Shown piece after piece: positions 1 through 60,168 of a stretch of 64,000 bases of DNA; position 1 is the first letter of the stretch, and the number at the start of each line of letters is the position of its first letter. This DNA is from an uncultured Gammaproteobacteria bacterium (lineage in GTDB: Bacteria > Pseudomonadota > Gammaproteobacteria > Eutrophobiales > Eutrophobiaceae), in contig CALSRS010000001.1 of NCBI GenBank assembly GCA_943788815.1, positions 900,069 through 964,068 of the forward strand, written 5' to 3'. Below the pieces are notes generated by a model that was given only the letters and a program-made list of their open reading frames with translations, ran no database searches and was not told where the DNA came from. A program made the position numbers and the translations under genes.

Positions 1-880
1 ATAATGTATTGAATGCAACGCTACGTAAAATCCCAGGCTCAGTATTAACCCAGACCCACATGGCTATTGCCGCAATCAATGCCTCAACCATAATTCCTGC
101 GGCCGCTACCAACATGCGCTGATGTTTATTTCGAAATGAAGCTGAAGATGAGGCGTCAACATACGGAACAGGCATAAAAATCAGGAACATTACCCCCATC
201 TCATGCACTTCCCCTCCCCAACGTTTAACCGCATAGGCATGACCGAACTCATGTACCAGTTTGACAATGGGATAGATTAACCAGATTAGAAAAAGATTTT
301 CCGTGGCCAGAATACGATCGGCAAGATTTTCGGTCAGTTGTGGCCAATGGTAAGCTGCCTGAGACAAAGCCCAGAGGATAAAAACCAGCCAGATCACCGC
401 CATGACCGGGTTATAAATCCATTTGCTGAACCCAGCAGTGCGGTTCAGAAAAGCTTCCGGATCAAGTAAAGGAAATTTGACGGCAAGCGGAGATTTAATG
501 ACTGACCAGAACTTGGTTTTTCTGGCCTTTTCACGTCGTTCATTTAATTCCAGAACATCAGGGGGCATATCCGTCTGAATAACATCAACACGATGTAATT
601 GGGATAAAAGTTTGATTACCTCATCCTGTGAGGGCATATCATCACCGAGTTGCTCACCGGCACAATGCCAGATATCTTCAAGTGAACGCTGTCCATTCAT
701 TAAACCAATTAACGAATATGCTTCGTCATTGAAACGATGAAATCGACCTGTAGCATCGTCTTGAATTACATACCAGACATCACCACGGTAGACATGACGG
801 TTAATCTCAACATGAGAACGTAATTTGGGTTTAAGATTGGCAACCCGATACCAGGATTCACTAAATAGTGAAACTGACAA
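1..880 (-). CDS. Peptidase M50 (site-2 protease family) membrane metalloprotease. Only the N-terminal ~293 codons are in the window; the gene continues beyond the window start. Probable TTG start at 878-880, directly after the TAA of the upstream gene.
   Basis: My own reverse-complement translation (this ORF is not in the supplied track because it has no stop in the window). It reads ...WYRVANLKPKLRSHVEINRHVYRGDVWYVIQDDATGRFHRFNDEAYSLIGLMNGQRSLEDIWHCAGEQLGDD...IWLIYPIVKLVHEFGHAYAVKRWGGEVHEMGVMFLIFMPVPYVD... The HExxH zinc motif (HEFGH, nt 236-262) lies inside a hydrophobic helix, as in M50 proteases. The ~60-aa N-terminal segment resembles a PqqD/RRE-like peptide-binding fold (…A..L..L.DG.R(S/T)L..IW…DV…L..L….VI…). 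It sits in the same frame immediately after the TAA stop at 881-883, which suggests translational coupling. Confidence 0.6.
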   Translation of the reverse strand, partial: MSVSLFSESWYRVANLKPKLRSHVEINRHVYRGDVWYVIQDDATGRFHRFNDEAYSLIGLMNGQRSLEDIWHCAGEQLGDDMPSQDEVIKLLSQLHRVDVIQTDMPPDVLELNERREKARKTKFWSVIKSPLAVKFPLLDPEAFLNRTAGFSKWIYNPVMAVIWLVFILWALSQAAYHWPQLTENLADRILATENLFLIWLIYPIVKLVHEFGHAYAVKRWGGEVHEMGVMFLIFMPVPYVDASSSASFRNKHQRMLVAAAGIMVEALIAAIAMWVWVNTEPGILRSVAFNTL

Positions 881-2707
881 TTATGGCCACCATTCCCACA
901 GTTTCAATTTAATCCACTGTTGCAGTGGATAGGTCCAGATCCAGATAAGCTTACGTTCGTCTACCTCGATCTTACCCACGCCTTCCATCCCTGGCCGCAA
1001 CTGTAAAATTGATTCACTTAAGGTCGCCTCGACACGAAAATAATTTCCGCCATCACGGGCCTCGGTTACCGGAGTAACCTGGGTAACAATAAAGTCAAAG
1101 GTATATTCAGGTAAAGAGTTAAGAATGAGACTGCCCTGCAACTGTTCTTCGATTTCAGACATTCTATGTTCATCTACCCAGAGAATGATGCGATATTTAT
1201 CAAGTGGCGCGACCTCAAACAACACCTCGCCCTGCTCTACCGCACTGCCCAATCGCTGACTCAACTCACCACTGACAACGAGACCATCGAACGGTGCAAG
1301 CAGACGGGTCCTTGATAGTTGACTTGAAATAAGTTCTAGTTGCGCATTGTTCTGCTCGAGCTGGGCCTGGATAACTTTTGCTTCGGACCGGTTCTGCTCG
1401 GCAACAGCACTCTCATACTGGCTTTGGAGTTTGGCTTGCTCACTCATAGAACCGAGTTTTTCCAAAGTCAGATCCCTGTCATCAAGGTTAGACATAATTT
1501 GCCCTTCGGTGACATGTTCTCCAGCCCTGACATTAGCAGATTCTAGATAACCATCAAATGGCGCAACAATGGCGCGGCGGATTGACGGCTCCAGGATACT
1601 GTCAGCGGCAACTCTATAAGTTCCGGTTGCAAAGTTAAAAAATACAACGAGGGTAAGCAGGCAGATGAGTGCTAGTTTTCGTCCGAGATAACCTTTACCT
1701 ATTATCCTTTGTAGTTGTTCCACAGTGGCAGTATATAAATGGAGATACCAGGATTTATCCTGCAAATATTTTGTGCGCAGGGCCTCGCCTGAGAGTGCGA
1801 CTATACTCTGAATCTGATCAACTTCATGTTCTAGAAAAGGTTTCTCGGAATCACGTTCCAGGGTAACCGCGGCAAAATATTCTTCACCTGAATGAAGTGG
1901 AATAGAAAGTAAACTGGCATTCCCATATGAGAGTGAAAATTGAGCATGCTCCCTGTCCACCAGTAATTTATTATCATGTTCACTATTGGGGTAATTGATG
2001 ATTCCACGCTGAACAACGGCTTCATCCATTACTCCAGCAAGACGACGAATCAAATTCATCTTTTTGCCAAATTGCGCACTATGAGAAAGAGCAGCTACTT
2101 CGATTTTCAAGCCTTTATTCATGCCAATACTTACTCGTTCACAATCGAACGCAGAGGTAAGTTTATTAACGAATGTCATGGAGGCACTATTAAATCCAGT
2201 TTCTGCAAGTACAGCGCCCAATAATTCCACTGCACCAGACAACCTATCAAGTTGAGTATTTTTCTCTTTGCCATCATGACGTCGCAAAAAGAGTTCTATC
2301 CAGGCACTACCCCACTGTATTTGTTCCATGATCCTGGGTAATGCTGATTGTGGTACGCGGACAGAAAGCGCGACAACACCTTTTAACTCGTTATCAAGCC
2401 GGATGGGAAAAGCTACACCATACATACCCGAACCAAGAGAATGAACAAGACCTGCGGCTTCTTCAATTGATTCCTCTAGCAGGGAAGTCAGACTAGTAGC
2501 GGGTTGGGTCTTTTCAGGCCACAGGGCCGCAGGTTGAAAACCTGATTCACCATTATCCAGAACCAATATAGCCTGACTGATGCTATCAAGCCGAATACAG
2601 ATTAATTCAAGCCAAAACTGGCAATATTCCTCATAGCTTGATGCAGCGGAAAAGTTGACCCAGACCTCACGCAAGCTGTTCTGGGTATCATCGGAATCAA
2701 TTTGCAT
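881..2707 (-). CDS. HlyD-family periplasmic adaptor (membrane fusion protein) with a ~320-aa N-terminal cytoplasmic extension predicted to contain tandem GAF-like sensor domains.
   Basis: 608-aa ORF. A single TM segment (LALICLLTLVVFFNFATGTY, aa ~325-345) is followed by a typical MFP periplasmic region. That region has a lipoyl-like hairpin (VAPFDGYLESANVRAGEHVTEGQIM…LLAPFDGLVVSGELSQRLGSAVEQGEVLFEVAP), a short coiled coil and a beta-barrel tail. The N-terminal 320 aa are hydrophilic with two alpha/beta repeats (e.g. …AILVLDNGESGF…GVVALSVR… and …ERVSIGMNKGLKIEVAAL…), consistent with GAF. The annotated ATG at 2705-2707 has no Shine-Dalgarno sequence (the upstream mRNA is CUUAUUCCUUCCUUGUU), so the true start may differ. 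Confidence 0.7.
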   Translation of the reverse strand: MQIDSDDTQNSLREVWVNFSAASSYEEYCQFWLELICIRLDSISQAILVLDNGESGFQPAALWPEKTQPATSLTSLLEESIEEAAGLVHSLGSGMYGVAFPIRLDNELKGVVALSVRVPQSALPRIMEQIQWGSAWIELFLRRHDGKEKNTQLDRLSGAVELLGAVLAETGFNSASMTFVNKLTSAFDCERVSIGMNKGLKIEVAALSHSAQFGKKMNLIRRLAGVMDEAVVQRGIINYPNSEHDNKLLVDREHAQFSLSYGNASLLSIPLHSGEEYFAAVTLERDSEKPFLEHEVDQIQSIVALSGEALRTKYLQDKSWYLHLYTATVEQLQRIIGKGYLGRKLALICLLTLVVFFNFATGTYRVAADSILEPSIRRAIVAPFDGYLESANVRAGEHVTEGQIMSNLDDRDLTLEKLGSMSEQAKLQSQYESAVAEQNRSEAKVIQAQLEQNNAQLELISSQLSRTRLLAPFDGLVVSGELSQRLGSAVEQGEVLFEVAPLDKYRIILWVDEHRMSEIEEQLQGSLILNSLPEYTFDFIVTQVTPVTEARDGGNYFRVEATLSESILQLRPGMEGVGKIEVDERKLIWIWTYPLQQWIKLKLWEWWP

Positions 2708-2816
2708 AACAAGGAAGGAATAAGATTACTGAGTTAGATTGAAACATTCAGATATAACTGAATATTTTAAACTTGCTACTAAATAACTTTATCAACTCTG
2801 ATGATAGCCACTATAG

Positions 2817-3134
2817 CTACTCTCCAGTTGTAATCCCGCTGATCTGACCATAGCGTTCTTCATATTGATCCAGGACATTACTTAGTAATATTGACAAGCG
2901 CTTGGCAGCATATGGACTGACGAGAATACGGTCTGAGAGTTCTATCGAAACTTCTTTTTGCTGTGCATTCCAGGCCTGATTGAGACCAAAAAATAATGCG
3001 ATTTCTTCCCGAGTGCTGGCAACGTTACATACATTTGCATAAGTGCTCTTCATTTGCGAATCATCCCAATTTATCTTAGGGGGAGTATTAGTAGCAGCCG
3101 GCTTACTCGCCGTTGTGGTTTTTTTAGTGACCAT
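2817..3134 (-). CDS. Small conserved hypothetical protein, DUF3467-like, translationally coupled to the giant gene.
   Basis: 105 aa. It has a good SD (AAGGA) 7-8 nt upstream of the ATG and starts only 14 nt after the giant gene's stop codon. The motifs …INWDDSQMKSTYANVCNVASTREEIALFFG… and the C-terminal …AAKRLSILLSNVLDQYEERYGQI match my recollection of the DUF3467 family. The family assignment is from memory, not from a search. Confidence 0.45.
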   Translation of the reverse strand: MVTKKTTTASKPAATNTPPKINWDDSQMKSTYANVCNVASTREEIALFFGLNQAWNAQQKEVSIELSDRILVSPYAAKRLSILLSNVLDQYEERYGQISGITTGE

Positions 3135-3148
3135 TATTTTTCCTTATA

Positions 3149-6100
3149 TTAATTTAACCTGATTCTTTTAAGTGCATTTTCCCACTCACTATGAGACACG
3201 AGCACATCATCTTCATCTCCTAAAAAACACTGACTGTTTTCATCCCAGTACCTGACTTTTCGCTGTTTATGATGCAACTTATCGATGCCTTTTTGATCTA
3301 TTCGTATATTACCTTTACGCTCGCCATTTGTCAGTTTCCAACCAGTTAATCCTGCAAGAAGAGCGGACTCTATCACTATACTATCAGAGTACTCCGCCAT
3401 ATTATCATCGGCAATAACTAAACCTTGTTGATCTTGAGCAGGTAGCATAAAGGTTGTACCTTCTGTATTAAGATCGTTCCTGTTCGCGCCAGCCGACTCA
3501 TCTTCTTGAGCATCAGTTTCTTCTTCTGGCACACCTGGCTCTGAGTCTTCAATTTCAGATGGATCCTGAATATTGGTAGTTTCTGTTGCTGTCTCGAGTT
3601 CCTGATTTTCTGTTTCATCTGGACCCTCTTGCTGAATATCAGGCCCGCCTTCTACTTCATTAAGTTGCTGATTTTCAGTTTCATCGCTATTTAACCTTGT
3701 CTCATCTACATTTATATACTCATAAGAATGCGTGTCGATAAAGCTCTGATATTCAATAATTCCTTCTCTGGAATAAATTGTCCCTGTGTCTTCATCAATT
3801 TCTTCCGGAACATCAGGCAAGTTCAGCGGGGCAAGAAGATTACCTACGGCTTCATTCTCTTCTTCCTTATTTTCATATAGTCCAGATGTGGTTGCAGCCA
3901 ATAAATCCAGAGAGCCTTGTGCAAGGTAAGTAATAGCAATTACTTCACCATCATCTTCGTTCTGAGTAAGATACGCATATTCACCAGACAATATGTCATC
4001 CGATAATACTGCATTAAATAAATCATTACCAAAGCCGCCAAACATACTGTCATTACCATCTCCACCATCGAGAACATCATCATCACCTATAAACAACTCC
4101 GTTGTTTCTGAAATAACCAGCTGGCCATTAATAAAGGTTGCCCTACCGCCGTCACCAGAAATAAAATCACTGCCTTCATCACCATATAGCTCGTCAGCTG
4201 CTGCGCCACCAATAATTACATCATCATCTTCACCACCATGGACCTCATCCTCGCCACCATTATCTGAGAAAAGACTCTCAACCATATCTAGTGTGTTGGG
4301 ATCGGAATCTGTTAAATTAAAGACAGCGATGCCAAGATCGCCAATCACTATATCCTTACCTGCGCCGGTAAATACTAATTCATTCCCCAACCCACCGATG
4401 ACAAGGTCATTACCGGCACCGCTATCGATGGTGTCATCACCAGATGTTGTCAGGTTTGTGTCCGTCGTAAAATACTCATCCGCCAGACCATTGATATAAT
4501 CGGCAATACCATTATCACCAAAGATAATGTTATCACCGTCTGCGATGGTTACCTGATCATCACCAACACCTGCAAATACCAGGTTATTTCCACCACTTAC
4601 AGAGATGATATCATCTCCGCCCAGGGCACTTAATTCGCTTTCAACCTGGACGCGTTCACCACTACTGCCATATCTGACTGTGCCATTATCACCCAAATAA
4701 ATACTGTTACCAGCGCCAGATTCTATGGTGTCGGCACCACCCCCACCGATCACAACTTTATCGCCATCGCCCATAGTTACATTATCATTACCACCTATAT
4801 TACTTTCGGTATTAAAAATAGTGCTCTTGATCCCCGCTGTCCACTGAATCTCGCCGTTATCCCCCATTACATAATCCGTACTGTCTCCGGTATCAATGTC
4901 ATCACCGCCCACACCACCAATCACCACATTTACATCCGTGGCACTGGCACCGCCCAGCGTCAGAGTGTCTGCACCACCAGCAGTGCTGGTGCTCTTCGCC
5001 ACTTCCAATATGTTATTGGCGTCATATCCAATCTCACCCTCATCACCCACCACATAACGTGTGCCCACACTGCTCAGCGTCGTCGTCACCGTGTCCTCAC
5101 CCAGTCCAGCTATTACCACCTTGTCACCACTGCCAAGGGTAATACTGTCATTGCCACCGGCCTCACCCAGATAACTCTGCATGTTAATCAACTGCTCAGA
5201 ACCCGCAGGTCCTGTATACGTCATCACACCGTTATCGCCCACAACATGGTCGGTACTCGTCGCCGCCACTACCGTAATCGTGTCGTCATCACTGCCACCA
5301 ATTACCTGGTTCACATCCCCCGACAAGGTGATCGTGTCCTGGCCACCATCAGCATTGGCCGTGCTCTTCACCGTGCGCAACGCGCCAGTCGCATAAACGA
5401 TCTCGCCGTTGTCTCCAATCACACGGTGTATGCCAGACGTCCCGGTGTCCACCGTGTCATCCGCCATACCGGCTATCACCGTCTTCGAGCCATTACCCAG
5501 GTCAATATCATCATTGCCGCCAAACGCACTGTTGAGGCTCACCATGCTATCGATAATGCCACCCGTCCACTGAATCTCGCCGTTATCCCCCATTACATAA
5601 TCCGTACTGTCTCCGGTATCAATGTCATCACCGCCCACACCACCAATCACCACATTTACATCCGTGGCACTGGCACCGCCCAGCGTCAGAGTGTCTGCAC
5701 CACCAGCAGTGCTGGTGCTCTTCGCCACTTCCAATATGTTATTGGCGTCATATCCAATCTCACCCTCATCACCCACCACATAACGTGTGCCCACACTGCT
5801 CAGCGTCGTCGTCACCGTGTCCTCACCCAGTCCAGCTATTACCACCTTGTCACCACTGCCAAGGGTAATACTGTCATTGCCACCGGCCTCACCCAGATAA
5901 CTCTGCAGGTTAATCAACTGCTCAGAACCCGCAGGTCCTGTATACGTCATCACACCGTTATCGCCCACAACATGGTCGGTACTCGTCGCCGCCACTACCG
6001 TAATCGTGTCGTCATCACTGCCACCAATTACCTGGTTCACATCCCCCGACAAGGTGATCGTGTCCTGGCCACCATCAGCATTGGCCGTGCTCTTCACCGT

Positions 6101-9100
6101 GCGCAACGCGCCAGTCGCATAAACGATCTCGCCGTTGTCTCCAATCACACGGTGTATGCCAGACGTCCCGGTGTCCACCGTGTCATCCGCCATACCGGCT
6201 ATCACCGTCTTCGAGCCATTACCCAGGTCAATATCATCATTGCCGCCAAACGCACTGTTGAGGCTCACCATGCTATCGATAATGCCACCCGTCCACTGAA
6301 TCTCGCCGTTATCCCCCATTACATAATCCGTACTGTCTCCGGTATCAATGTCATCACCGCCCACACCACCAATCACCACATTTACATCCGTGGCACTGGC
6401 ACCGCCCAGCGTCAGAGTGTCTGCACCACCAGCAGTGCTGGTGCTCTTCGCCACTTCCAATATGTTATTGGCGTCATATCCAATCTCACCCTCATCACCC
6501 ACCACATAACGTGTGCCCACACTGCTCAGCGTCGTCGTCACCGTGTCCTCACCCAGTCCAGCTATTACCACCTTGTCACCACTGCCAAGGGTAATACTGT
6601 CATTGCCACCGGCCTCACCCAGATAACTCTGCAGGTTAATCAACTGCTCAGAACCCGCAGGTCCTGTATACGTCATCACACCGTTATCGCCCACAACATG
6701 GTCGGTACTCGTCGCCGCCACTACCGTAATCGTGTCGTCATCACTGCCACCAATTACCTGGTTCACATCCCCCGACAAGGTGATCGTGTCCTGGCCACCA
6801 TCAGCATTGGCCGTGCTCTTCACCGTGCGCAACGCGCCAGTCGCATAAACGATCTCGCCGTTGTCTCCAATCACACGGTGTATGCCAGACGTCCCGGTGT
6901 CCACCGTGTCATCCGCCATACCGGCTATCACCGTCTTCGAGCCATTACCCAGGTCAATATCATCATTGCCGCCAAACGCACTGTTGAGGCTCACCATGCT
7001 ATCGATAATGCCACCCGTCCACTGAATCTCGCCGTTATCCCCCATTACATAATCCGTACTGTCTCCGGTATCAATGTCATCACCGCCCACACCACCAATC
7101 ACCACATTTACATCCGTGGCACTGGCACCGCCCAGCGTCAGAGTGTCTGCACCACCAGCAGTGCTGGTGCTCTTCGCCACTTCCAATATGTTATTGGCGT
7201 CATATCCAATCTCACCCTCATCACCCACCACATAACGTGTGCCCACACTGCTCAGCGTCGTCGTCACCGTGTCCTCACCCAGTCCAGCTATTACCACCTT
7301 GTCACCACTGCCAAGGGTAATACTGTCATTGCCACCGGCCTCACCCAGATAACTCTGCAGGTTGCTGAGTTTTTCTGCACCTGCAACACCTGAATAGGTC
7401 ACGATCCCCTGATCACCCAATATATGGTCGGTACCATTTGCACTGATGATCGTATCTATCCCGCCACCACCGAGAACGACATTATCCCCTTGACCAGCAA
7501 TGATCTGGTCATCACCCGGTAACACAGAGACCGTGGTCCTGGTCTGATACAGGACGTCTGTCAGTGTGACCTCACGGGCATCGAACACGGCTGGATTACT
7601 TTCTATGATGTGAGTGCCTGTCGTGGTGATCAGATCAACCGCACCATGGTCACCGAAAATAATATCGTTACTGAAATCAATTAACGGATCGGCATTAAGA
7701 ATTTCACCATAGAGATAGTCGTTACCATCGCCACCAAAAATAATGTCATCACCTGCATCGCCGTAGATGATATCGACACCGTCGCCGCCCTTGATAATAT
7801 CCTCATCATTCCCGCCCCGGATCCGTACCGCTAAATCTGCGGTGGAGGCATCGATAACATCGGCGCCAGCATTACCCCAGATCTGTATGCGGCGTTCTTC
7901 AATGGGTAGTAATAATAAATTATGTGCAGGCGCCAAAAGATTATCTGTGGCAGTGATAATGATATCGTCATTACCTTCATTGGCATATAACTCTGTAATG
8001 GTAATGCCGGTCATCTCAATACTGCTCACGGTAATGGTATCGTCACCCTTACCGGCCCATACCACCAGGCCATTGTTAAAATCCCCACCCGCGGCATCAT
8101 AATTAATCGTGCCAACGGCCAGACCGCTGATACTGCCGTCTGACATCTGTGCATTTTTAGCTACGGTGTTATCAAAATCACTGATAAAGAGGGCGTTATT
8201 ACCGACGCCAGCATCAATGTTCAACTCACCCTGTACACCATCGAGATTCCCGTCGGCAAGTAACTGGTTAACAAAATAACCATCGGCAGTGGAGCTAACA
8301 TGGAATTGCTCGTCACCCACACCGGTATTAATGTTGGTGACGGTATTAAGGCTAGTGGCCTGGACATTAATAGTGTCAGTTCCGCTCCCCGTGTTGATAG
8401 TAAGGGTGTCAATTCCATAATAGTTAATGCCATCAGTCCGGGTTGCCAGTTCAGTATCACCAACAATGTCATTGATATCTGTGGCCAGGATACTGTAACC
8501 GGCATATTCACCCTGGAAGGTAAAGATAAAATCATTATCGGCTTTGACTACCGAGAAGTTATCCGTCTCAGGGTAGAATTGACGGCGTTCCTGGGTATTA
8601 TTCGGATTAAACAGGTAGTTGAGTTCGTCAAACCAGGTATCTGCATCAGCGGGATTTGCCTTAAGTTGCGGGATATCGCCGGCGCTGAAAGTCACGGACC
8701 CAACCGGAATGCCGGTGTGGTCAAGGTCACCTGGTGCGTAAACTGTTAAAACTATATTTCCACTTCCTACACTGATGGTTTGTACGGTATTTAATTCTGG
8801 TGTAGTAGTACCTTCTGTCAGGTAATTCACCCTGGCCCGTGGTGCGAATGGTGTTGTATCCGATATGGTCAGGTCGCGATGCTGGGCTTCCAGGTCAGTA
8901 AAATCTACCGTGCCGGTAGTGTAATCAACAACATATGTCCTGATTCCGCTATTAATACTCAAATTAACATTAATATTTACATCGTCTTCAATCAGTAATA
9001 ATTGTGCGACCGCTACCTTCATGTCGGCATCAGAAGCGGTAGATTCCAACACAACCTGATCGGATATTGCCCCGTCATCCCCCCTGGCCAATAACACGTA

Positions 9101-12100
9101 GCTACCGTCAACATTATCAACAATCAAGTTGAACTGACTGGATGTGCTGGCACTGGTATTCAGGGTGCCAACATTCGATACATAGAATGCAGGCACTTCA
9201 AACAGTGAGTTGTCTGGATTATAGCGCGGTGCAATATCGATGATATATTTACGTTCACCGTTACCAGGGTTGGTCTGTAGCTCTACTGCTAAAGATAACC
9301 CGCTAACATTGAGCAGGGTATTTATTATATTGGCAATATCCGTTTCATTGGCATCCCACTGTACAATTGCGCTCGATCCACTTTCCGAAGCAATCTGGTA
9401 TGTCCCGCTACTGGCTTGTGTTGTCAATGTGAACTGGTTAGCAAAAGCAATAGGCTGGGCTGTGGGTATAAAGGCTGCGATCTCGGCAATATTTTTACCT
9501 GCAGATTCACCAATGAAGGAAATCTGGTATTGCTTGATTTGATCATTGAACTGATCTGGCGTAGTGATATTGATATTGGCCACAGGTTCGCCCGTCATGA
9601 TTGCCAAAGCACCAGCAATTTCACTATCGGTTGCATCCCAATTCAACAACTCATAAGTTATGCCACCGTCAGTAGATAAATGATAGGTGCCGGCTTCGGC
9701 CTGAATATTTAGCAGGAATGTCTCTGGCACGCTGGGCATATCCAGACCAGTCAGGGTGGTATCTGTCAGCCACAGGGTATTATCATTGGTATCCCCGCTG
9801 TCATTTACAATCAGAGAATTGTTACCAAAGTCATCACCGATTATGGTTAATAACGCCATAATTTGATCAACAAGCTGGCTATCACTGCTGACGGTCACGA
9901 GATTATTATCAGCAAGTGCCTGGTCAGTGCCAAGGTTGACCATGGTATGACCGGAAATCGTTTTTATATCAATGATACTGCCACCGGCACCGGTATATAT
10001 ATTTGTCGCGCCGGCATGGGTGGCTTCTATGGTCAGGGTGTCCTTGCCGCTGCCGAGGTACAGATTAAGTTCTTCCAGGTTTGCGTAGCGAATTCCACCC
10101 GGAATATCCTGACCGGCCAGCTCTATCCCGGTACCCATACCAAAACCGGTAAGGCTTTCCGCTGTCAGTATGCCAAATTCCTCAGCCGGGCTGCCGCTGT
10201 TATTAAAATTCAGTACATCAACCTGTTCTTCCTCGACCACCCTTTCATTACGATTTAGTGGGCGGTAATAGTATTCATCATTATTGCTGTCATATCCTGT
10301 TGGCCATGTGGCCGCGAGTATCACCCGGTTACCGATCACTGCCAGTATATCCACCACATCGCCGGTTATATTACGTGTGGTCTTATCAATAAAACCAAGC
10401 TCATAAGGCGCACCATTAATGCGTGGGTCAAATCCCTGGACCTCTCCGTCATCCTGATCAAAATTTGTAACCGTTTCATCGACAAACGTAGCAAATTCTG
10501 TGATTCCAGTCTTGTCAGAGTCGGTTAGAAATTCTCTCAGAACCTGGTAATTCACTGTCGTCGTTAATTCGGGCTGGGCAAGAAAAGCCTCTAACTCGGC
10601 ACGGGTAATCGTGTTTGTAGTCGGTGTCGCCAGTTCTATCTGTATACCCGCAGTTGTTAGAGTACCGTCCTTGCTTCCGGTTGTATTGCTGGACTTTTGC
10701 CCATTGACGACCGGGTTGTTGGTTTCACCCGGCAACATTACTGGATCATTGAGATCGACATAACTCGCGGCCACCGCCCCACCCTCGATACTGATAGGTC
10801 CGCGGATCTGGTTAACCCTTTGCTCTGCCGGGGCAAAAACCTGCAGGTCTCCACCATCAACCGTATTATCATCATCTGCGGTTACCGTGACTACAAAAGA
10901 TGCAGAAGATGATGGTGTTACAGGATCTGGTGTTGAAGTTGTTTGTTTCGAATTACCAGCGCCACCGTCAGTGAATGCCCTGCTGGCATCATAGGTGGGC
11001 GTATCCAAATCGGTGACTGTGATCCCATCAGCAGACTTGGTCAGCACCGCCTTGTATGTATCATCCAGCCCGGCGAGCCAGTCAGTGAAATCCGTGCCTT
11101 TATATACGCTATCGGTATTGGTTCCATCATCGATGACCTTGTAGACCTCATATCTGCTTCCTTCATCTACATCATCCCATAGTGATGGATCTGCGGAAGC
11201 TGTCGCATCTATTTCAAAACGGTTAACCTTGATATTATTTTCATAGGCAGTAAATGTCCTGATTATTCCTTCAGCACCTGCACCCGGACCGGCAATTACA
11301 CGAATATTTTTTTCCTCTATGGTCTGATTATTAAGATTTGAATTGTGCTGCTGAATGGATACATTCAAATCATATGAGGTGCCAGGAGCCACTCCCCGCC
11401 ACTGGTAGTTATAGGGACCATAGTTATAGTTAAGATTCTCTGAATTATAGTTGCCGGTATAGTTGTCCTTGGTCTGTATAAAATAATTATATTCATATAC
11501 CGTAGACTCCAGATAACCAACCTCAACGACATAGGTACCTTCAATGTTAAAGGTGTTTTCTATATATGGATCCGCCGTAGAAGTGACCTTTACTGGATTG
11601 AGCATCATACCGGGGTATGTGGCAGACTCAGGCAAACCCTGTACATTTTGAATATACGAAACGAATCCCGCACGTAACTCAGGGGGTAATTGCTCTGAAA
11701 CCGTTGATAACTGCGCCTGCAGGGCTGCACCCGTTACCCTGGTCGAAAAATCCACCATTTCATAGATGATCAAATAAGGCGTTTTGACCAGATTTTCTTT
11801 AATATCATAGTGAACGCTGGTGGTAGTTCCCAGGGGATGAATAGCTGTGGCTGCACTATCATAAGTATAGTCACCAGCATAATTTCGCACATTCTCCTTT
11901 TCTTGTTTCACGTCATCAAGATCAAAGAGTGCACCGACACCATTGGAATTCACAGAAATATTTACGATGGCGTCATTAAGACCGGAGATTGTCAATTCGC
12001 GTATATTTACCACATCCAAACTAGCCGTATAGCCGGCCGTAACCAGGTCCTGGAGCAAATCTGCGAGTACGGTATCCATACTGGGCAGGTCACCATTGAC

Positions 12101-15100: not shown

Positions 15101-18100
15101 AACCGGCGCACTGGTAAAGTAAAAAGCGGTATTGGGAGCTGCAGTCAGGGTTACAACATCCCCACTTGTACTGGCCGTTATCGCTCCGGCAGTTGATGAC
15201 TCGGCATTGATTGCATTGACCAGATTTTGGGCAAGAGACACACCCGATGTAACAACGTAATCACTGATGTTGGTTGTGGTGTGGGATGTTTCCCCGGGCT
15301 TGTTTATCACCAGAGACGCACTCAGCAACTGACCATTGATAGGGTCACCGTCCATGGTTATCGCGGCAGTCTTATACCAGTTGGCCACCAGGATAGTTGA
15401 GTTCACAGCATCAAACGTGGATCCGCCGGCACTAGTCAACATGGCTGTATTAACGACAAAATTATAGCGATCCACGGTGCCATCACCGCCACCCGAAATA
15501 GTGGTATAGGGTGTGGAAGAATCAATATTTAATTCACTGGCACCTGGCGGTATATCATCTCCAATATTTCCATTGGCAAAGGTATACCAGTTGTCTGCGT
15601 CTTTATTAGCTGGAATTGTTAGATCTGCAGGGTAGTCCGGATCTTTTACCCAGTCATCAATATTACTGCCGATAATATTGTTATTTGCGTCTTCATCCTC
15701 AAGGATAGGGTCCGGTGCAAAGGCCCAGGCGTCGCGTTTATGCCCTTCTACAGAAACTTGCAGTTCATAGTCGACACCATCCGGCAATCCCAGCTTAAAT
15801 CCTTCCTTATAGTTGTAATACCAGTCATAGCTGTTCGTCACTTCAATAACATAGGTACCAACGCTATTGATTTCATATGTATTGAAATCATCGTACCAAT
15901 ACATATCATAGGTATAATCAACCGAGTTATACGTATAATCCCACGTGCTGCCACCGCTGGCATAAGGACCTGCACTTAAATAAGTAGTATCGGTACGTGC
16001 GGCGAAGCGCTGATTATAATCAGTCGCATAGTCCTGGGGACTGACCTCGATGAACTTGGTCGAATCGGTGGGGTCTACCTTGTATAACTTAAGTTGGCTA
16101 CGCCACCAGAGATCATCACCATAGGTATAGCCCTTGTCCACATCAAGATTGACCGTCACGGAATTGCTGGCATTAGTCAGCATCGTAGAATCAATCTTGA
16201 AACTATAGAAATCTGCGCTGCCTTCCAGTTCTCCACTGATGCTGATATAAGGAAACGTGTTTGGAGCAAAAATATCCGTATCTACCTCAATACCCCACTC
16301 GGAATCCTCGAGATTCTGGGCGGTGGTGATGGTGTTATTTTTTCTGCTCTCACCAATTTCAGGTAGGCCAAAGGTACCGCTGAATTCCCATTCAGACGTG
16401 GTAGCATTATAGACACCCTGATCAAGCAGCTGCCCTTCCACGTAGACAACTTCCTGGGCCTTTTCTGTGACGATGGTGCTGCCATCTGTCTCAAGGAAGA
16501 TAATATCCTGAACCTCGTTGTCACCGATCATAACGTCCACAGAGGCAATACTAATACCGCTATATTCAGGCGCCGTTGTGGTAATGCTATGGTCGATATG
16601 ACTGTAGTGAATACCTTCAACCGCTGTGTCATCCATGGCGGAGATAGTTATCTTCGCAGCATGGTTCCAGTGGTAGATGTTATTAGCTGTATTTTCCGCT
16701 GTTCCACTATTGACAAAGGTTATGGACGATGGCTGGGTACTTAATTGTGCACCGGTATTAGGATCAACATACGGGCTTATATTTACTGTTACCGGTTGCC
16801 CCAGAGGAGGTTCTTTTGACAACATTAACTCATAGCTATCGTGATCCACCGCATAATTAGTCTGCCCTGCAGCCACATCTATCTCGCCGACTACTAATTG
16901 TTCCTGGGATGGTAATACCACCACATTCGCTGTCTGCGTATCCACTACCCTGACCACAAAATTATTGACTTCCACATTGTCATATTCATCGCCATCCACT
17001 GCACCATCTTCAACAATAGTGTGCTGTATCTGGTAGGACTGTATGCCTTCTATTCCGCCATTAAATGCACCGCTATCAACGGGTGCTGTAACCGTAATAA
17101 TGCGTTCCTGATACCAGTTGGTCTTGTCAAAAAGGAAGGTTACGCCCTTTGCACTGCCATTGAGTAATATGCCTTCCGGTCTGATCAGGGTATCAGTATT
17201 CTGGCTGTCCTCTGCATCTTCAGCAAATGCTGGCTTGGCAGAGAATGAAACAACCCCCTTGGGCGGACGGGTAAGTAATACTGCATATTGCACATAGGCA
17301 TAGGCGCCGAAAACCGCACCTGCCGGGCCTGCTCCGCCTGGGTTATCTTCAAATATGGTATTACCCGTACCAATCGGAATCAGTCTGACACCGGCTTCGT
17401 CTTCATCCATAACTTGTGTGCTGAGTGTACGAATGACATCGCTGGTCAGGGTTTCATGCTCTATCAGGCTGTTATAACCCTCAAGATCGTCGGCCACGAC
17501 AGAGACTGCATCACCGTCGGGTCCATCGCCTATATTGAAGGTATCAGAACCAAGACCGCCTATGATCTGCAATTCTGCATCAGCAGGTGTACTAAAAACG
17601 AAGAAACTATCGTTACCCTCAAGCCCATCCACAATAATCTGTTCGATTCCGTCATAGGACGTATAGCGGCCGAGGCCATAAATACCCTCATCTGTTACGA
17701 CGAAGTCATCGGCGAATTCAGTACCGATTACGGTTAATGAATCAAGGCCATCGCCACCGGCGATACGGACGGGGGAATTAATGGCATAGGAAATATAATC
17801 AGCCCCGTCACCACCATTGATATTCGTAATCGGCGCCAGTGGATCATCAGGGTCTACCAGCACAAATGATCGCACAAGGAAGTTATCACTGTCCGCACCA
17901 CCCAAAAGACTAACAGTGGCCTGGTTGCTGAGTACAGTAAAACTGTCGTCCCCGATCCCACCAATCAAGGTTGCCGCGGCACTCACACCATTGGACAGAT
18001 ATCCCTGGGTAGTGAGATAGGTAAGAAAGGTATCATCAGCACTCAAGCCCGCAAAGGTATCCCGTGGGGATTGATACATCTGTCCCAGCTGGAAGATATC

Positions 18101-21100
18101 ATCACCTTCACCAGCATCAACCGTCAGCAGCACGTTGGAATCATCAAAGATGAAAGTATCATTGCCGCCATAGGTAGACAGCGATAGTCCAGCAAATCCC
18201 GAATAATCTATTCTTTGGGCAACATCATAGCGATACAACAATGCATTACGGAACAGAAAATGGTCATCAACATCCTCGATGTCTTCAGTACTGATGACCA
18301 GAGCGTTACCGGCCGAATTGGCATCCGTTGCGATGACATCATCAAGATTGATATCCCCAGTGGCGGTACCATATATTTTCAGTTGGTAGTAATCAGCATT
18401 TGCACCGCCTGAAATATACATCCCCTCGACATTACCCACCTGGGTGACGCTGATTTCATCCTGACCGGCGCCGGTCAACAAGCTAAGGGCAGCCGCCGAT
18501 GTGACGGACGTAATATTACCGGTCTGTTCCAGCGAGAGAGTAATTTGGTCAACATCACTAATACTATCAACGTCAAAACTACTTCTCGTCGCCAGAGACA
18601 TGCCTTCGATTGTCCCTGCAATAATCACATCAGCAACGGCAATACCATCGGCAAGTTCGATATCCACGGCCCGGGAAGTGCCATTGGCAGATGTAATGAT
18701 TGCAGACTGATTTATGATCAGGTCCAGAATGTCATTAAACTGACCAGTGGTTACGACATGCATTCCATCAATTGAGCCGTCCAGATTGACGTTTGCATTG
18801 AGTGACGTATCACCCAGATCAAATACTATTGATGGGCTGCTACTATCTGCTGAAGTCACTACAGCAGTACTAATCAGATCAAGATCCAGATTGCCGTTGA
18901 CGGCATCTATATTAAATCCGTTTACAATTCCCTGTAGGTTAATATCGACACTCCCACCACCAGCTCCGGTATCAATGGAAACGGTGCCCGCGTTACCCGT
19001 GTTGTCAAAATCTATCGTATCAATTCCTGTCCCGGTAACTAGCGAGATCCCATCAACATCTCCTGCTGAGAGAAAGTTGGTAACGGTAGCTCCGTTGGCA
19101 AGATTAATATCTATGGCGCGGGAGGTGCCGTTTGCAGAGGTAATGATGGCGCCCGCCTGTATGGTCAAGTCGACAAGATCGGTAAAGACCCCTGCACTAT
19201 CCAGGAAAAATCCGTCTATGGTACCGGCAAGGTTAATGTTCGCATTAACCGAGGCACTACCCAGGTCAAAGATAATTGACGGGCTGGTACTGTCCGGTGA
19301 AGTAACCATTGCATTCACCAGCATATCGAGATCCGTAACCCCGTTATCGGCATCCAACCTGAAGCCGTTCACCGCTCCCTGCAGATTAACGTCAACCCGC
19401 GCCGCACCATCGTTGGTTTCAATGGTGACAGTACCGATAGTACCGTTACTCAGCAAATCCAGTTGATCAGCACCGCTACCCGTATCAATGGAAACATTAC
19501 CCGCATTGTCATTTATGGTGACGTCAATGATATCCGCGGCTGCGCCTGTCTCAATTACAAGGTTACCCATGCCACCGGAAACTGAGATATCAATCTCATC
19601 AACGCCATTACCAGTATCAATAGTAATGTCACCCGTGCTATCAATTGTAATGTTACCATCGCTATCAATGACAGGATTCGTAATACCAATATTCACAAAA
19701 TCTTTATCATTTTCTCCATAAAATGCTAACGAACCCTTCATTGAGATAACATTGACAGTATCCTCACCATCACTGGCAAATAACGAGACTTTACCCGCAT
19801 ATGTGCTATCAATATGAAATATATCGTCACCTCCGCCTGTGTAGATAGTGATCTCATCAAGATATTTTGCCGAATCAATACTTATTTCTTCGACGAGTAT
19901 CGTTGATGCATCATCATTAATATTCAAATTGAGATTCTCTACACCAGCAAACCATATGCCAAGATCATTCAGACCAACCACCGAATCATAGACCACGGTG
20001 TATTCAGTACCCGGTTCACGGCCTATGACAACCGATGAATCAACAACAATATCGACATCTTCAATTTTGGTAATAATGATATCGGTCGGCAAGTAGAAGC
20101 CGTCCGTATCCTGTACAGTTTTAATATCGACGCTGTGGCGCTGGTTTGCACCATCATAGATAAACAGGCCGTCACTAATGGGTACCGTGATGTCGGGAGC
20201 GGTGCGTAATGTTTGTCCAAAGGCCTCTTCAATCAACTGTGTAACCTGCAAGTCGGTAAAGAAACTGGTATCAACAGGGTTGCCAACAATACCATCGGCC
20301 GGGTCGGTAATGAGAGGATCAGCCAATGCAGCGTAATAATCATGCCGTGCAGACGTCAACTTGTTTTCAACAACCAGTGCATCCAGGTAAGCGTTCCAGT
20401 TATTCACGGTAAGGTAAACCCGGTCTGACAGTAAAGCACTTGCAGGATCAAGGGCTACCTGACCATCAACGGTCACTGGCGGCGTGATAGTATCATCACT
20501 ATCATTCAGGCGTCTTACCGCGACTGCTTCAAGGGCCTGCTTACCATCACTGTCAACACCATAGTATGAGTAGGTGTAATAGGATCGTTCATAATTGTCG
20601 ATCTCGGCAACATAGGCCCTCTCCATTTTTATTGGATCGTAACCATAAGTGAAACCATCGATACGACCTGTAATGAGATTCGATGATGACTTGTTTGCCT
20701 TGTTTCCATCCTTGTATATGACGTAGTTGATCTCGCGCAGGGTACGGCTCTCACCCAAGGTATCATTGGGCGGCAGTGCCAGATCGCCAGCCATGATCTT
20801 CGCGCCCTCCTCGTAGGGATCAAATCCGGTCGTGTTTGGTCGATTGAAGAACTCTTCTACTGGCGAATCGATTGTTTCAACTTCGCCAGGGAGAGCGGTA
20901 CGATACTCGGATTCCAGCCATATTTTCTGGTTATATTGCCAGGTGGATTCCCGCGCTGCCAGCACTGGTGAGTCCTGCTTGTACACTCGCAGCGCCGTAT
21001 CGCCGGTCCAGGAAAAACCTTCGGTAGTCCGAAGATCCTGGCTGACAGAGGTTAACTCAACAAAATGCTTGAGCTCGTTCAGGCGCGTCTCAATGGTAAC

Positions 21101-24100
21101 TGCCTCGGCAAGGGGATTGGCCAGCGCAATAGAAGCATCTTTATCCAGCAACTCGAACAAGGTCACGTTATTAAGTAAGGCATCAAGCGCGTCAAGGGAG
21201 AAATCAGCTTCACTCACAAGCGTGGTATTACCGTTGAGAATTAGCCCACGGTTTACAAAATTTTGTACAGCATCAACATAAGCCCGCTCCGCATTTGTGC
21301 CGCTTTGCAGGGCGGTGTCAAGTGCGATACTCGCCGTGTTCAGTGCATTGAGTGTTGTAGAGAGCTCAAAGATATGGGTGAGGGTATCAACCTGCAGTGA
21401 CACCGTGGCATTGGCAACGGTGTTGTCAGCAAGCTGATCGAGTATACCAATTTGGCTCTCCTTATGTGCCCTGGACAACGCATCCTGGACATCGATAGGT
21501 TCGACACCACTTGGTAGCACGGGCAGCTTGCTATAATCATAAATAAAATCTCCAAGGAGCAGTGTTTGTTCCTCAATGCTAAGGTCAAATCCGCTGTTAT
21601 CGCGGGCATTGATAGTCAACTTGTCACCATCACCAAGGCCGCCTGCAATACGCACTACCCCTTCAATTTCATTCAAGTCATAGTTCTCTGGCAGGGTTTT
21701 AATTACCGTACGCTCGGGTAATTCATCGAAGCGATAGGAAGCCGCACCCTTTTCTATCATGGTGTGCTTGATACGCTCAATGTTGATCGTGTTATCAGGT
21801 GCTGGCAAATCGACTTCATAGAACAGGCTGATCACATCCCAGAACAGGTTATTGCCTGATAGCGGTTGGGCACCACCCATACTATAGGTAGGCATCCATA
21901 CACCATCCTCACCTGTTATATGTGGCAGCCAACCATTGGCAGGTACCTGGTGAGCATAAAGATCGGTAAGGAATAGATCGGGCTCATAGAAGAAACCGTT
22001 GTTCAGCCAGTTAAAATCAGCAAAACCCCAGAAACTTCCGGAAGAAGTAGTAAAGGTCTGCTCAACGCGAGGACTGAAAAGCCCGGTACCCTCTCGTACC
22101 GGCTCTGCCCGGATCATGTCACCCGCAATAGCATGGGCAATAGCGGTGTTCATATAATTGAATAAATGCCGATCCAGCGTTATGCCGCCGGCATTGAAAT
22201 TTGTGTTTGGTGCAATGGTTTGCAGCGTATCGAAATCAACCTGTGTAGGGAGAATCGGTGACCAGTCGTTGTTCAGGGCATTGTTTAATGAGCTATAGTA
22301 GGCGACGCTATAGCTGAGACCAAGGAAGCCATGATAATAGCCATAGGAATCGACAGTCTGATAATCCCAGCGGTACTGGTTAGTATTCTGCAACTGTGCC
22401 TCGAAGGTATTCAGCGATGTCAAGAATTCGTTCTTCTCACTACGCGCACTAGCACCCCAGCTACTGGGTGAATTCTTCAGGGGGACAACACGATAAGTCG
22501 ATGCCGCCAGTTCAACTGCCTGGGCATACAGTTTAAGTGCAACGGCCAGGTTTGCTTCGAGCAGGGCCCAGTGTTTCAGACCGATATCGACGTTGAGCAA
22601 GTCTGAGGCACTTATCTCAGGGGCAACCCATTTCTTATAGAAGTCACGCCAGGCTTCATCTTTATCGGTTTGTGAAAGCAGGCTGTCCAATGAGCGATAA
22701 CGATGATTAAAAAATGCGTCATTGTAAAAAGCATTCTCATCAGCGGTGAACTCGACAGCAAGGTCCTGTTCGACGGTGTACACCGCACTGGACTCGGGAT
22801 AAGTAACGGAGAAATGCCGCTCCTCGCCACCAATTATGATTTCATCATTACCGGAACCCATGTTAATCAACAAACTGAGACTGGGGTCAATTCCATAGAG
22901 ATAAACCGTATCATCACCGGAGCCGGTCAACAGCGCGAGTCGTTCAATACTATCGATATTCTCGAGCTTGAGACCGGCGCCAAAGAGATACTGGCGGTTA
23001 TCTTCGTCGGTAAAGACATAGAATTCATCGGGAAGCGCGGTACCTGCTACAACCACGGTGTCAAAACCACTACCACCATAAATCTCAACGCGGTTGTTCT
23101 CTACATAATCGATGAGGATATCTTCATCTTCCTCGGCGATGTTGTTCTCGGCATCACCGGCACCGGCGGTGATCTGGCCGCCATCAATTTCCTCGGTGGT
23201 CATGGCACCGGGGGCACCCTTGGCCTGCAACTGCGCCTTGAGGAAAAAGGTATCATCACCGGCCTCACCGAAGAGTTCAAGTTCACCAATGTTATGGTTG
23301 ACCTCAAAGTAGTCATCATTACCGCCACCAAAAAAGGCCGCGTTGAAGCTGACTCCGGGTGTAATACCGTTCTCGCCGTCAACCACTTCAACCATGAGAC
23401 CGCCAATATCGACGGTCTTGGTCTTAATCACGCGGCCGATAAGAAAATTGTCCTTGCCTTCGTCACCGGACACCACCATGGCGGCCATGCTATCGTCGGA
23501 AATAAATGTATCGTTCCCCTTACCGCCACGGATATCAATCACCTCTACGCTGCGATCATAGTAAACGCGCTGATAAACCGTAGGATCAGACACGGATATT
23601 GACTCGCGCGTCGTCGCTGCCGCATCGGCAACATCAAGCGGCGTGCTGGCCACGTTCGTGGTAACGCCAATGGCAAAAAAGTTTTCCTTGTCATCAAGCA
23701 GTGCATCATCAAGAAAAACACGCCAGGGTGACTGGCTTGTACCTGCACCGGTGACGGTTGCCACCGTAATATCGTCCAGACTCTCAAGTGCAGCTTCTAT
23801 GTCCGTAGCGTTGGATTGGTGAGAAAGACCAGAAGTACTGGTATTACCGTTGTAGGTGACCTCAAAGGCACCGGTTTCGCCCGGCAGGATATTAAATAAT
23901 TGTGTTTCGTTTGCCGGCCGCTCGAACAGGGCATCAAGATCGGGTTTACCATCCAGCAGAGACTGTGCAAGGTCTGCCGTAATACGGGTCACCGTTGCCC
24001 GGGTCACATGCAATTTAATTTCGATATCATCGCTGAGCAGGCGGAAAAAACGACCCTCGGAGTTACGCCCAACAGTGCTGGCGTCATTAATAATGATGTT

Positions 24101-49360: not shown

Positions 49361-49618
49361 TAACCTGAACTAATCCTGAGTATCAGCAAGCCATATAATT
49401 CGCAATTGGCGATATACCTGAGCCGAGGCTTTGTAAAACAGTTGAAATTCACGTTAACGCTGATATTCACTCAAATGTCCTTAGGTGTTTTTATCTGACT
49501 GGTTTAATGTCCAGTCATCCTTATGAATAATTATTAAAAGTTTTATTTACTATTTTTATAACAAGTTATTTGTTTTATTGAACTGGCCCACATCCATTAC
49601 GTTTTTTTATGAACAATA

Positions 49619-50959: not shown

Positions 50960-51264
50960 ATACCACTCCTATTTTTGAAATTATTTATTTTTGAACCTGA
51001 CCAGAAAAGAAGCCGATTTTTTCAAAAAAACTTACTAAAAGAATACCACAAAAAACATAAATACAGCATTAAAACAAATAAGAAGATGACCCGTAAGGCT
51101 AGAGCGTTTTTGCAACTTTTTTTTTGCATTATGCGACGCAATTTGCAACAACCAGTGTGCGCAATCGAATAGCGTATGTATCCCGTCAAAGCATATGAGA
51201 CAGAATTGAGCTGATTTCTAAGAGAGACTTCTGATAAGTTAAACTTATAAATAGGAGTCTCATT

Positions 51265-51624
51265 ATGAGCAATAATAGCGAGAAATTAGTTAAAGATATA
51301 CGTCGTCGTACCCGTAAGAAGTATTCCTCTGAAGAAAAGATCCGAATTGTACTGGAAGGGATGCGTGGAGAAGAAAGCATTGCCGAGCTGTGTCGCCGTG
51401 AAGGATTGAATCAAAACGTGTATTACCGCTGGAGTAAGGAGTTCCTGGAAGCGGGTAAACAGCGTCTGGCGGGCGATATAAAACGGGAAGCAAACTCCAC
51501 TGAAGTGACCGACCTGAAGAAAGAAAATGACCAGCTCAAACGCCTGGTGGCTGACATCATGCTGAAGAACGAGGTACTTAAAAAAAGTGTGCTTGGCTTG
51601 GAGTCGACCTGGGAAGACGAATGA
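51265..51624 (+). CDS. IS3-family transposase OrfA (HTH, leucine-zipper-like C-terminus).
   Basis: 119 aa. The protein …EEKIRIVLEGMRGEESIAELCRREGLNQNVYYRWSKEFLEAGKQRL… is characteristic of IS3/IS911 OrfA. Confidence 0.85.
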   Translation: MSNNSEKLVKDIRRRTRKKYSSEEKIRIVLEGMRGEESIAELCRREGLNQNVYYRWSKEFLEAGKQRLAGDIKREANSTEVTDLKKENDQLKRLVADIMLKNEVLKKSVLGLESTWEDE

Positions 51625-52607: not shown

Positions 52608-52895
52608 AACAAGACTATAATAGTTAAAAGTCTCTCTTAATATTTACGCTATTTTGTCCCAAATCTTTTGACGACTTACACTTTGACGGGATACACTTAT
52701 AAGGTTTATAGAAAGTTATTTATTGAAGGACCTTATTTGGAATTGACGGAGAGAGAGGGACTGACCCGCCCCTTGGCCCAGGCCAGCATCTCGACTGTTT
52801 CGGTCTCACCTTCTCCATGGCCTTCGCGGCACTTGCACTTCCAAATGCATTGAGATTCGTAACCCTCTTTCTCGGGTTCGAATAACTTTTTTCTT

Positions 52896-60166: not shown

Positions 60167-60168
60167 AA

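Follow-up and report, generated by a model that had tools for sequence, protein, structure and literature searches.

A candidate export system for giant LEPR-XLL/RTX proteins assembled from a truncated SecA paralogue, a site-2-type protease and HlyD-type adaptors

The stretch of 64,000 nucleotides analysed here, hereafter the window (positions 1-64,000), comes from an uncultured gammaproteobacterium (contig CALSRS010000001.1, positions 900,069 to 964,068) and carries part of a putative secretion gene cluster built around a giant protein with an N-terminal LEPR-XLL motif and RTX repeats. The cluster encodes a DUF3467 protein, an adaptor joining a GAF domain to HlyD domains (GAF-HlyD), an M50 protease with a HlyD-like C-terminus and a predicted RiPP recognition element (RRE; RiPPs are ribosomally synthesized and post-translationally modified peptides), a truncated paralogue of SecA, a short HlyD protein and a TolC channel. 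The favoured reading is that these proteins form a dedicated one-step, TolC-dependent exporter of the adjacent giant, and a probability of about 60% is assigned to it. It is carried by a conserved core of four genes, by the association of this core with LEPR-XLL giants, and by the leader-recognition fold predicted for the protease.

The secretion genes of the window all lie on the minus strand. They, and the parts of the giant that matter for the argument, are located as follows:

49619-50959, minus strand: TolC-family outer-membrane channel, with which the cluster opens (TIGR01844, 270.9 bits; cut-off 225.15).
3149-49360, minus strand: giant protein of 15,403 amino acids (aa), the putative cargo, with LEPR-XLL, DUF4347 and C-terminal-side RTX repeats.
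49232-49300, minus strand: LEPR-XLL motif, giant aa 21-43 (...LQFEQLEPRILLSADLG...), matched by NF012209 (LEPR-8K).
48281-48727, minus strand: DUF4347 domain, giant aa 212-360 (PF14252, 174 bits).
3230-3370, minus strand: C-terminal element, giant aa ~15331-15377 (…ESALLAGLTGWKLTNGERKGNIRIDQKGIDKLHHKQRKVRYWDE…), from a local hidden Markov model (HMM) and alignment.
2817-3134, minus strand: DUF3467 protein, 105 aa (PF11950, 79.6 bits; cut-off 25).
881-2707, minus strand: GAF-HlyD adaptor, 608 aa, with GAF, HlyD_3 and HlyD_D23 domains.
1-880, minus strand: first 293 codons of the M50 protein (Peptidase_M50), whose gene leaves the window at position 1.

The DUF3467 gene starts 14 nt past the stop codon of the giant, and the M50 gene starts with a TTG immediately after the stop codon of GAF-HlyD. 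An earlier note, made from the letters of this DNA alone, had described this gene layout with its coordinates and spacings, and every detail was borne out by the lists of open reading frames (ORFs) and by profile searches. The ORF at 1-880, which it had taken for an M50 protease, scores 30.6 bits with Peptidase_M50 against a gathering score of 27.2, and the other models it had named for these ORFs, GAF, HlyD_3/HlyD_D23, DUF3467 (PF11950) and LEPR-XLL (NF012209), all found their match. Scans of 1-3600 and 49200-51400 for promoters and terminators gave nothing over shuffled background. No ORF for an ATP-binding cassette (ABC) transporter is present in the ORF lists of window 1-8000 and 49300-64000; the interval 8000-49300 is the giant ORF and was not listed separately.

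The same note had supposed that an ABC gene might lie beyond the window start, and this expectation did not hold. Records of the identical GAF-HlyD protein exist in 25 collection blocks, and 23 metagenome contigs carrying it were read. Metagenome contig L083 (341 kb) matches window 1-12000 with 100.000% identity and adds 9.1 kb past the window start. In L083, the rest of the M50 gene (715 codons) is followed by a gene for a SecA paralogue of 660 aa, which abuts it, and then by a gene for a short HlyD protein of 270 aa, which overlaps the SecA-paralogue gene by 4 nt. These 9 kb past the window start hold no ABC transporter; the truncated SecA paralogue and another HlyD-like protein, the third, stand there instead, and related loci are built likewise. 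The additional adaptor is located as follows:

L083 15955-16767: short HlyD adaptor, 270 aa (HlyD_D23 63 bits, Biotin_lipoyl 27 bits), with an N-terminal hydrophobic segment.

The SecA paralogue contains SecA_DEAD (342 bits), SecA_PP_bind (87 bits) and P-loop_SecA (161 bits) domains. It aligns to residues 21-607 of B. subtilis SecA (E 3.5e-128) and ends about ten residues later, while its Walker A (MKTGEGKT), DEVD and TNMAGRGTD motifs are all intact. The Pfam search gave no SecA_SW or SEC-C match, and the protein stays below all SecA and SecA2 cut-offs of NCBIfam (596.8 against 814 for SecA; 547 against 1085, 489 against 930 and 435 against 725 for SecA2). In SecA, the zinc-binding tail, the helical wing, the two-helix finger inserted into SecY and the bulk of the helical scaffold all belong to the C-terminal third. 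Judged from its sequence, the paralogue keeps the predicted ATPase core and preprotein clamp and is devoid of the SecY-engaging parts. Like the accessory SecA2 ATPases known from mycobacteria and Gram-positive bacteria, it would be a second SecA-family ATPase dedicated to a few special, often very large, surface proteins. It differs from them in that the hosts here are diderm, the C-terminal third is missing, and the partners are HlyD, TolC and M50 proteins rather than SecY2/Asp.

Together, GAF-HlyD, M50(-HlyD), the SecA paralogue and the short HlyD are defined as the core. An M50 alignment, run against one genome per species, returned 521 relatives, of which the best 80 loci were kept; the counts that follow are over loci whose contig is long enough. 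GAF-HlyD lies directly upstream of M50 in 67/67 loci, a HlyD-like C-terminus is found on the M50 protein in 72/72, the SecA paralogue is present in 61/62 and the short HlyD in 52/58. DUF3467 occupies a position like that in the window in 37 of 64 loci (58%), and TolC occurs within the flanks of 4 of 31. Among these best 80 of the 521, the closest relatives are an uncultured gammaproteobacterium (78% identity), Marinobacterium rhizophilum (77%), a Pseudomonadales metagenome-assembled genome (72%) and Amphritea (71%), and the core ranges over Gamma-, Beta- and Alphaproteobacteria, Desulfobacterota, Acidobacteriota and Nitrospira. ABC-like ORFs occur in only 2 of 82 related loci (L052 and L065), 2-4 kb beyond the core and unconserved. 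Four RefSeq plasmids (L086, L087, L089 and L090) have the same gene order, with TolC at the end in Methylosinus. Their annotations give the SecA paralogue as a 'prepilin peptidase' or as a 'DEAD/DEAH box helicase'; for the M50 protein they use 'hypothetical protein', 'site-2 protease family protein', 'PqqD family protein' or 'PqqD family peptide modification chaperone'.

The core is linked to giant proteins of the LEPR-XLL type. Where at least 3 kb upstream could be assessed, a large same-strand ORF with RTX motifs stands directly before DUF3467/GAF-HlyD in 38 of 50 loci, and 35 of these 38 ORFs run off the 10-kb flank, that is, they exceed ~2,400 aa. At the same position, the RefSeq plasmids of Pseudosulfitobacter, Pontibrevibacter, Mesorhizobium ciceri and Methylosinus carry giant genes of ~26.5-38.8 kb (~8,800-12,900 aa). 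NCBI already calls two of these four giants 'LEPR-XLL domain-containing protein'; it lists the others as Ig-like and LamG-like, yet they start ...HFEALEPRLLLSADF and ...FDTLEPRVLLNADV. All nine N-termini tested pass NF012209, at 17.5-36.3 bits, and the window giant is a LEPR-XLL domain-containing protein by the same model (33.5 bits against a cut-off of 17). Together with the two labelled by NCBI, LEPR-XLL is thus found in 12/12 visible N-termini of core-adjacent giants.

The association also holds when it is approached from the motif. In a six-frame translation of 1.42 Mb of core loci, the motif occurs 8 times, each time 28-83 codons into a very long core-adjacent ORF. A reverse scan of metagenomes with the pattern LEPR[LIV][LM][LY][SDN]A[DAT] yielded 65 loci, of which the 47 with at least 1.5 kb upstream were assessed. 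Core genes lie within 10 kb upstream of 17 of these 47 LEPR N-termini, and a further 14 have TolC, SapC or DUF3467 only. These counts are lower bounds because the giant gene usually separates its N-terminus from the core. The association between core and giant, observed in both directions, is far beyond chance, and the link that had been supposed between the M50/GAF-HlyD pair and LEPR-XLL giants is upheld by the 38/50 RTX neighbours, the 12/12 N-termini and the 17/47 of the reverse scan.

The leader of these giants has a constant layout, in which a Lys/Arg-rich stretch is followed by (F)(E/D)xLEPRxLLSAD at 26-70 residues from the start; in the window giant, too, a Lys/Arg-rich stretch precedes the motif. 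No hydrophobic core accompanies it, as no segment resembling a transmembrane helix was found in aa 1-150. This layout bears on the idea that the SecA paralogue and the housekeeping SecYEG bring the giant, or the adaptors, to the periplasm, the M50 protein being an unconventional signal peptidase for LEPR-XLL and HlyD/TolC a separate second step. The N-terminal position and basic n-region of the leader do recall a signal peptide, and Gram-positive accessory SecA2 proteins act through SecYEG or SecY2. The absence of a hydrophobic core speaks against the idea, however, as does the loss from the paralogue of the very third of SecA that engages SecY through its two-helix finger and helical wing. 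The loci also contain no SecY2-like gene, and a route through SecYEG is accordingly judged highly improbable.

At the other end of the giant, RTX nonapeptides lie within the last ~700 residues; the giant has 39 GGxGxD-type motifs. The C-terminal element has a short hydrophobic AxAG-xGW part, a basic stretch and RRxxRW; its hydrophobic part of ~14 aa is shorter than a transmembrane segment, with basic residues after it. The element is common to cargos of many gamma- and deltaproteobacterial and acidobacterial loci, amounting to about half of the cargos, and every match of the local HMM falls at the very C-terminal end of an ORF upstream of the core. A database search with its alignment gave no match at E<=0.001. 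It was rejected as a universal signal, as the four plasmid giants from Alphaproteobacteria and many other loci lack it; its absence from the former means that it is lineage-restricted. Where present, it may act as a signal, an anchor or a protease site. The C-terminal signals of exosortase and rhombosortase systems consist of a motif, a full transmembrane helix and a basic cluster, and are paired with a dedicated intramembrane enzyme. The C-terminal element here has a hydrophobic part below transmembrane length, then basic residues, and is not universal; the enzyme paired with it belongs to a different family.

DUF4347 was considered as a marker of the system and was also rejected, since it occurs on Phaeobacter, Azospirillum, E. 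coli and cyanobacterial plasmids too. In the sole DUF4347 neighbourhood inspected, that of Phaeobacter inhibens pPGA1_262, no core cassette lies nearby. L083 contains a second DUF4347 gene (20071-21827), ~3.3 kb downstream of the short HlyD gene, with genes for an amidohydrolase and a small membrane protein between them. It carries the leader variant …LKALEPRIMLDAAA, which scores 17.5 bits with NF012209, marginal against the cut-off of 17, and may be another cargo of the same system. Inside the giant gene of the window, a unit of 726 nt is repeated in four tandem copies that are 99% identical (4830-7733; starts at 4830, 5556, 6282 and 7008). Metagenome contig L085 appears to be one copy short, and the copy number probably varies between populations. 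The array also produces, as an antisense artefact, a plus-strand ORF of 715 aa at 5246-7393.

The M50 protein offers a candidate reader for the leader. Its full-length form, known from L083, comprises 715 aa, with Peptidase_M50 at 36.4 bits and, at the C-terminus, a periplasmic HlyD_3/biotin-lipoyl-like domain (HlyD_3, 25.0 bits). HEFGH is located at aa 210-214 in the first membrane helices, NPLLRFDAYY lies beyond the window start, and a further hydrophobic segment spans aa 427-445. The protein thus has both the HExxH in a membrane helix and the downstream NxxPxxxxD(G) that mark site-2 proteases. Across the family, HExxH is invariant and the second motif, NPLLRFD(G/A)YY, nearly so, which means that selection acts on the protease as an enzyme.

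The 293 residues encoded in the window were modelled with AlphaFold (predicted local distance difference test, pLDDT, 81), and the model has a strand-strand-strand-helix-helix-helix succession at aa 24-97. The cytoplasmic N-domain (aa ~24-97) is therefore predicted to have the three-stranded sheet followed by three helices that characterise RRE/PqqD-like domains. In structural comparisons, the model matched TfuB1 with its leader peptide (score 10.2, 82/85 residues aligned), TbiB1 with leader (10.0), PqqD (9.5), TglI (8.0) and PbtF (7.4); the membrane part matched SpoIVFB (7.1), the M. jannaschii site-2 protease (6.4) and RseP (5.2). The Pfam PqqD model gives 17 bits, which is below threshold, and NCBI names many members of this M50 family 'PqqD family'. 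That LEPR-XLL could serve as a recognition or cleavage signal, as the earlier note had proposed, gains support from this predicted RRE fold being fused to a protease.

The nearest curated families of the M50 protein are intramembrane leader peptidases of RiPP pathways, and it remains below their equivalog cut-offs (159.6 against 300 bits for daptide_HExxH, NF041824; 33.5 against 225 bits for YydH/LiaK, NF058609). The protein is related to the RiPP leader M50 peptidases and is not a member of them. This kinship is what would favour the view that the core exports or matures a small, leader-bearing, RiPP-like peptide or some unrelated cargo, its adjacency to giants reflecting shared use of TolC or co-transfer. 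An RRE fold is typical of RiPP pathways, and some loci have no giant in their flank. The sole conserved small ORF is DUF3467, however, with a mean identity of 44% and none of the variability expected of leader peptides, and no RiPP-modifying enzymes are conserved in the loci. Since the two-way association with LEPR-XLL far exceeds chance and the motif in the 1.42 Mb always marks the N-terminus of a giant, a small or unrelated cargo is very improbable, the least likely of the explanations considered here. Compared with RiPP leader systems such as the lasso-peptide B1/B2 proteins, the daptide and YydH/LiaK M50 peptidases and peptidase-containing ABC exporters, the present locus differs in that its substrate has thousands rather than tens of residues, its protease carries a periplasmic HlyD-like domain, its partner ATPase is SecA-like, and modifying enzymes are lacking.

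The GAF-HlyD adaptor scores 37.8 bits with GAF (aa 178-309; cut-off 22.4), 60.3 bits with HlyD_3 and 43.3 bits with HlyD_D23. Its single hydrophobic segment lies at aa 345-363, so that ~344 N-terminal residues precede the membrane anchor. The predicted topology is one of ~344 cytoplasmic residues including the GAF domain, one transmembrane segment, and a periplasmic HlyD-type barrel-sandwich/beta-barrel part. Against the type_I_hlyD model (TIGR01843) the protein reaches 39.8 bits, below the cut-off of 208.65, and it has generic HlyD/RND-adaptor domains only. The family comprises 2,270 representatives (clusters at 50% identity) at E<=1e-30.

DUF3467 is an accessory gene between cargo and adaptor. 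Its product is highly conserved, lacks any hydrophobic or transmembrane segment and is cytosolic; an AF2 model (pLDDT 68) has four strands and a long C-terminal helix. Searches for structural, sequence and profile relatives of DUF3467 gave no significant match, and a SecB-like role found no support in the structural and profile comparisons. Another recurrent gene is SapC (PF07277), which is absent from the window and L083. It is found inside the core (Pseudosulfitobacter plasmid; L086 19100-19921), beside TolC, or directly upstream of LEPR-XLL genes; loci bearing it include L009, L018, L044, L069 and L076 as well as L103, L115, L121, L146, L150, L152 and others. In one Cellvibrionaceae locus, L069 (2981-7945), several genes stand between the RTX cargo and the core; in order, they encode TolC, two proteins lacking a Pfam match, a radical-SAM protein and SapC. 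This arrangement hints at optional modification genes.

Under the favoured reading, the cytoplasmic RRE of the M50 protein would bind the N-terminal leader of the cargo, that is, the basic stretch with LEPRxLLSAD. The SecA paralogue would supply the energy and thread the unfolded chain, and the membrane domain of the M50 protein, with the three HlyD-type periplasmic domains, would form the bridge to TolC. The M50 active site would then cleave the leader, which is the probable outcome, or otherwise free the protein. The GAF domain may gate export on a small ligand or on the cargo, and the RTX repeats, folding with calcium once outside the cell, would block back-sliding. By analogy, the working logic of such a machine is that of a peptidase-containing bacteriocin exporter or of a lasso-peptide B1/B2 pair, put together from SecA, site-2 protease and HlyD parts.

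Several points weigh against this reading. We know of no core component that is an inner-membrane protein-conducting channel, and site-2 proteases are not known to form one. The members of the core are known from sequence alone, and the binding of LEPR-XLL by the RRE is something we infer from the modelled fold and from co-occurrence. The C-terminal-side RTX repeats and the C-terminal element would fit transport with the C-terminus first, and sit less easily with an N-terminal leader. In the reverse scan, 16 of the 47 LEPR N-termini have none of core, TolC, SapC or DUF3467 in their flank; for many of these, the giant gene itself, separating the N-terminus from the core, could be the explanation. 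The negative result for ABC transporters covers the ORF lists of the window and the 9 kb past its start, a classical ABC/HlyD pair elsewhere in the source genome being outside this scope. In exponential-phase Methylobacterium extorquens, moreover, the GAF gene of the corresponding locus is expressed alone (PMC4452313).

Transport with the C-terminus first is the starting point of an alternative modelled on LapD/LapG, an analogy drawn in the earlier note. The giant would be exported C-terminus first, possibly by an ABC type I system encoded elsewhere, while the RRE-M50 protein would hold the LEPR-XLL N-terminus until GAF-controlled intramembrane proteolysis frees the adhesin. The known system pairs a periplasmic cysteine protease, LapG, with LapD, a c-di-GMP receptor that has HAMP-GGDEF-EAL domains; LapA itself is exported through an ABC transporter. 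The resemblance lies in a giant RTX adhesin whose N-terminus is perhaps held in the envelope, its proteolytic release being placed under a ligand-sensing inner-membrane protein. The differences are that the protease here is of the M50 type and the sensor is GAF-HlyD, and that no protein of the cluster has a LapG- or LapD-type Pfam or NCBIfam match. The RTX repeats and conserved element at the C-terminus, as in type I substrates, the conserved protease active site, the GAF sensor fused to an adaptor and the leader-binding fold predicted for the RRE would all suit such a switch. It leaves no role, however, for an ATPase with a preprotein clamp that is conserved in nearly every locus, and three HlyD-type proteins plus TolC exceed what a release switch needs. 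ABC transporters are rare here as well. Beside the scarce ABC-like ORFs of the core loci, none of the ABC, HlyD and OEP families occurs among the neighbours of the 16 core-less LEPR N-termini. Retention and release is thus possible but unlikely.

The favoured reading, a dedicated exporter, has to be set against the classical type I systems (HlyB-HlyD-TolC; LapBCE). Common to both are the TolC channel, HlyD-type adaptors and a clustered, very large cargo with calcium-binding RTX repeats on its C-terminal side. The present locus has a truncated SecA paralogue and a protease of the site-2 type in place of the ABC transporter, three HlyD-type proteins in place of one, and a cargo with a conserved N-terminal motif. 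The available part of a review of type I secretion (PMC8277102) discusses no M50 or SecA-driven variant, and literature searches on LEPR-XLL, DUF3467, DUF4347, SecA-like + TolC + HlyD, and SecA + PqqD + HlyD found nothing relevant.

The gene set itself has been described before. Kamneva, Poudel and Ward (PLoS One 2015, PMC4452313) reported in silico the same four-gene locus with a 'secondary SecA_DEAD domain protein', exemplified by META1p2402-2399 of Methylobacterium extorquens AM1, with an OEP gene sometimes adjacent. They proposed that SecA_DEAD supplies the ATPase in place of an ABC ATPase and that M50 is a possible membrane component, and they noted a wide taxonomic range, with Chlorobi among the carriers, which suggested horizontal transfer; the broader biological role was called 'completely unknown'. 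All four members of that locus are present here in the same order, namely GAF+HlyD, Peptidase_M50(+HlyD), SecA_DEAD and HlyD/Biotin_lipoyl, the SecA and the short HlyD being on L083. The text of PMC4452313 mentions no RTX, HemolysinCabind, DUF3467, DUF4347, cargo or RRE domain, and no experimental follow-up of the locus was found in the literature. The supposition that this pairing had not been described therefore fails for the gene set and stands for the cargo, none having been proposed there. The present work contributes a likely cargo in the LEPR-XLL giant, two accessories in DUF3467 and SapC, and the predicted leader-recognition fold.

Two further features of the window lie outside this argument. 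Directly upstream of TolC, an IS3-family transposase is encoded by two ORFs (HTH_Tnp_1; rve integrase core) at 51265-52607 on the plus strand, between the secretion cluster and a lysC-alaS-recX-recA housekeeping block; it may be the border of an island gained by horizontal transfer. Unrelated to the finding is a Glu/Lys/Ala-rich protein of 330 aa, probably a coiled coil, at 60655-61647 on the minus strand, directly after an ORF of 501 aa at 61651-63156 on the same strand.

A locus of this kind was thus already known in silico, and what seems new is the assignment of a cargo together with the leader-recognition logic. More tentatively, with somewhat less than an even chance, these loci would represent a distinct and widespread secretion system of diderm bacteria, in which a SecA-derived motor, an RRE-bearing site-2 protease and three HlyD-type adaptors docked to TolC export the largest known class of bacterial proteins by means of a LEPR-XLL leader that is read in the manner of RiPP leaders and cleaved in the membrane. 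In that case LEPR-XLL would constitute a secretion signal of a new type and would open a way out of the cell for giants that 'lack known signals'. A possible extension concerns the symbiosis giants of Chlorobium chlorochromatii, which are reported to 'lack known signals', to be flanked by sapC and tolC, and to occur in a genome whose secA Cag_1676 was recently acquired (bioRxiv 10.64898/2026.03.19.712371). By analogy, this pair of proteins may be candidate cargos of such a system, which is offered as a lead only.

The present analysis points to a testable function for the decade-old 'secondary SecA' locus, namely the export of LEPR-XLL giants of 10,000-15,000 residues, with the RRE binding the leader. 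If this is confirmed, TolC-dependent secretion resembling type I could be powered by a SecA-type motor where an ABC transporter would otherwise serve. With more than 2,000 cluster representatives (50% identity) in the GAF-HlyD family, such a system would then provide the secretion route for many surface giants of marine, soil and symbiotic bacteria.

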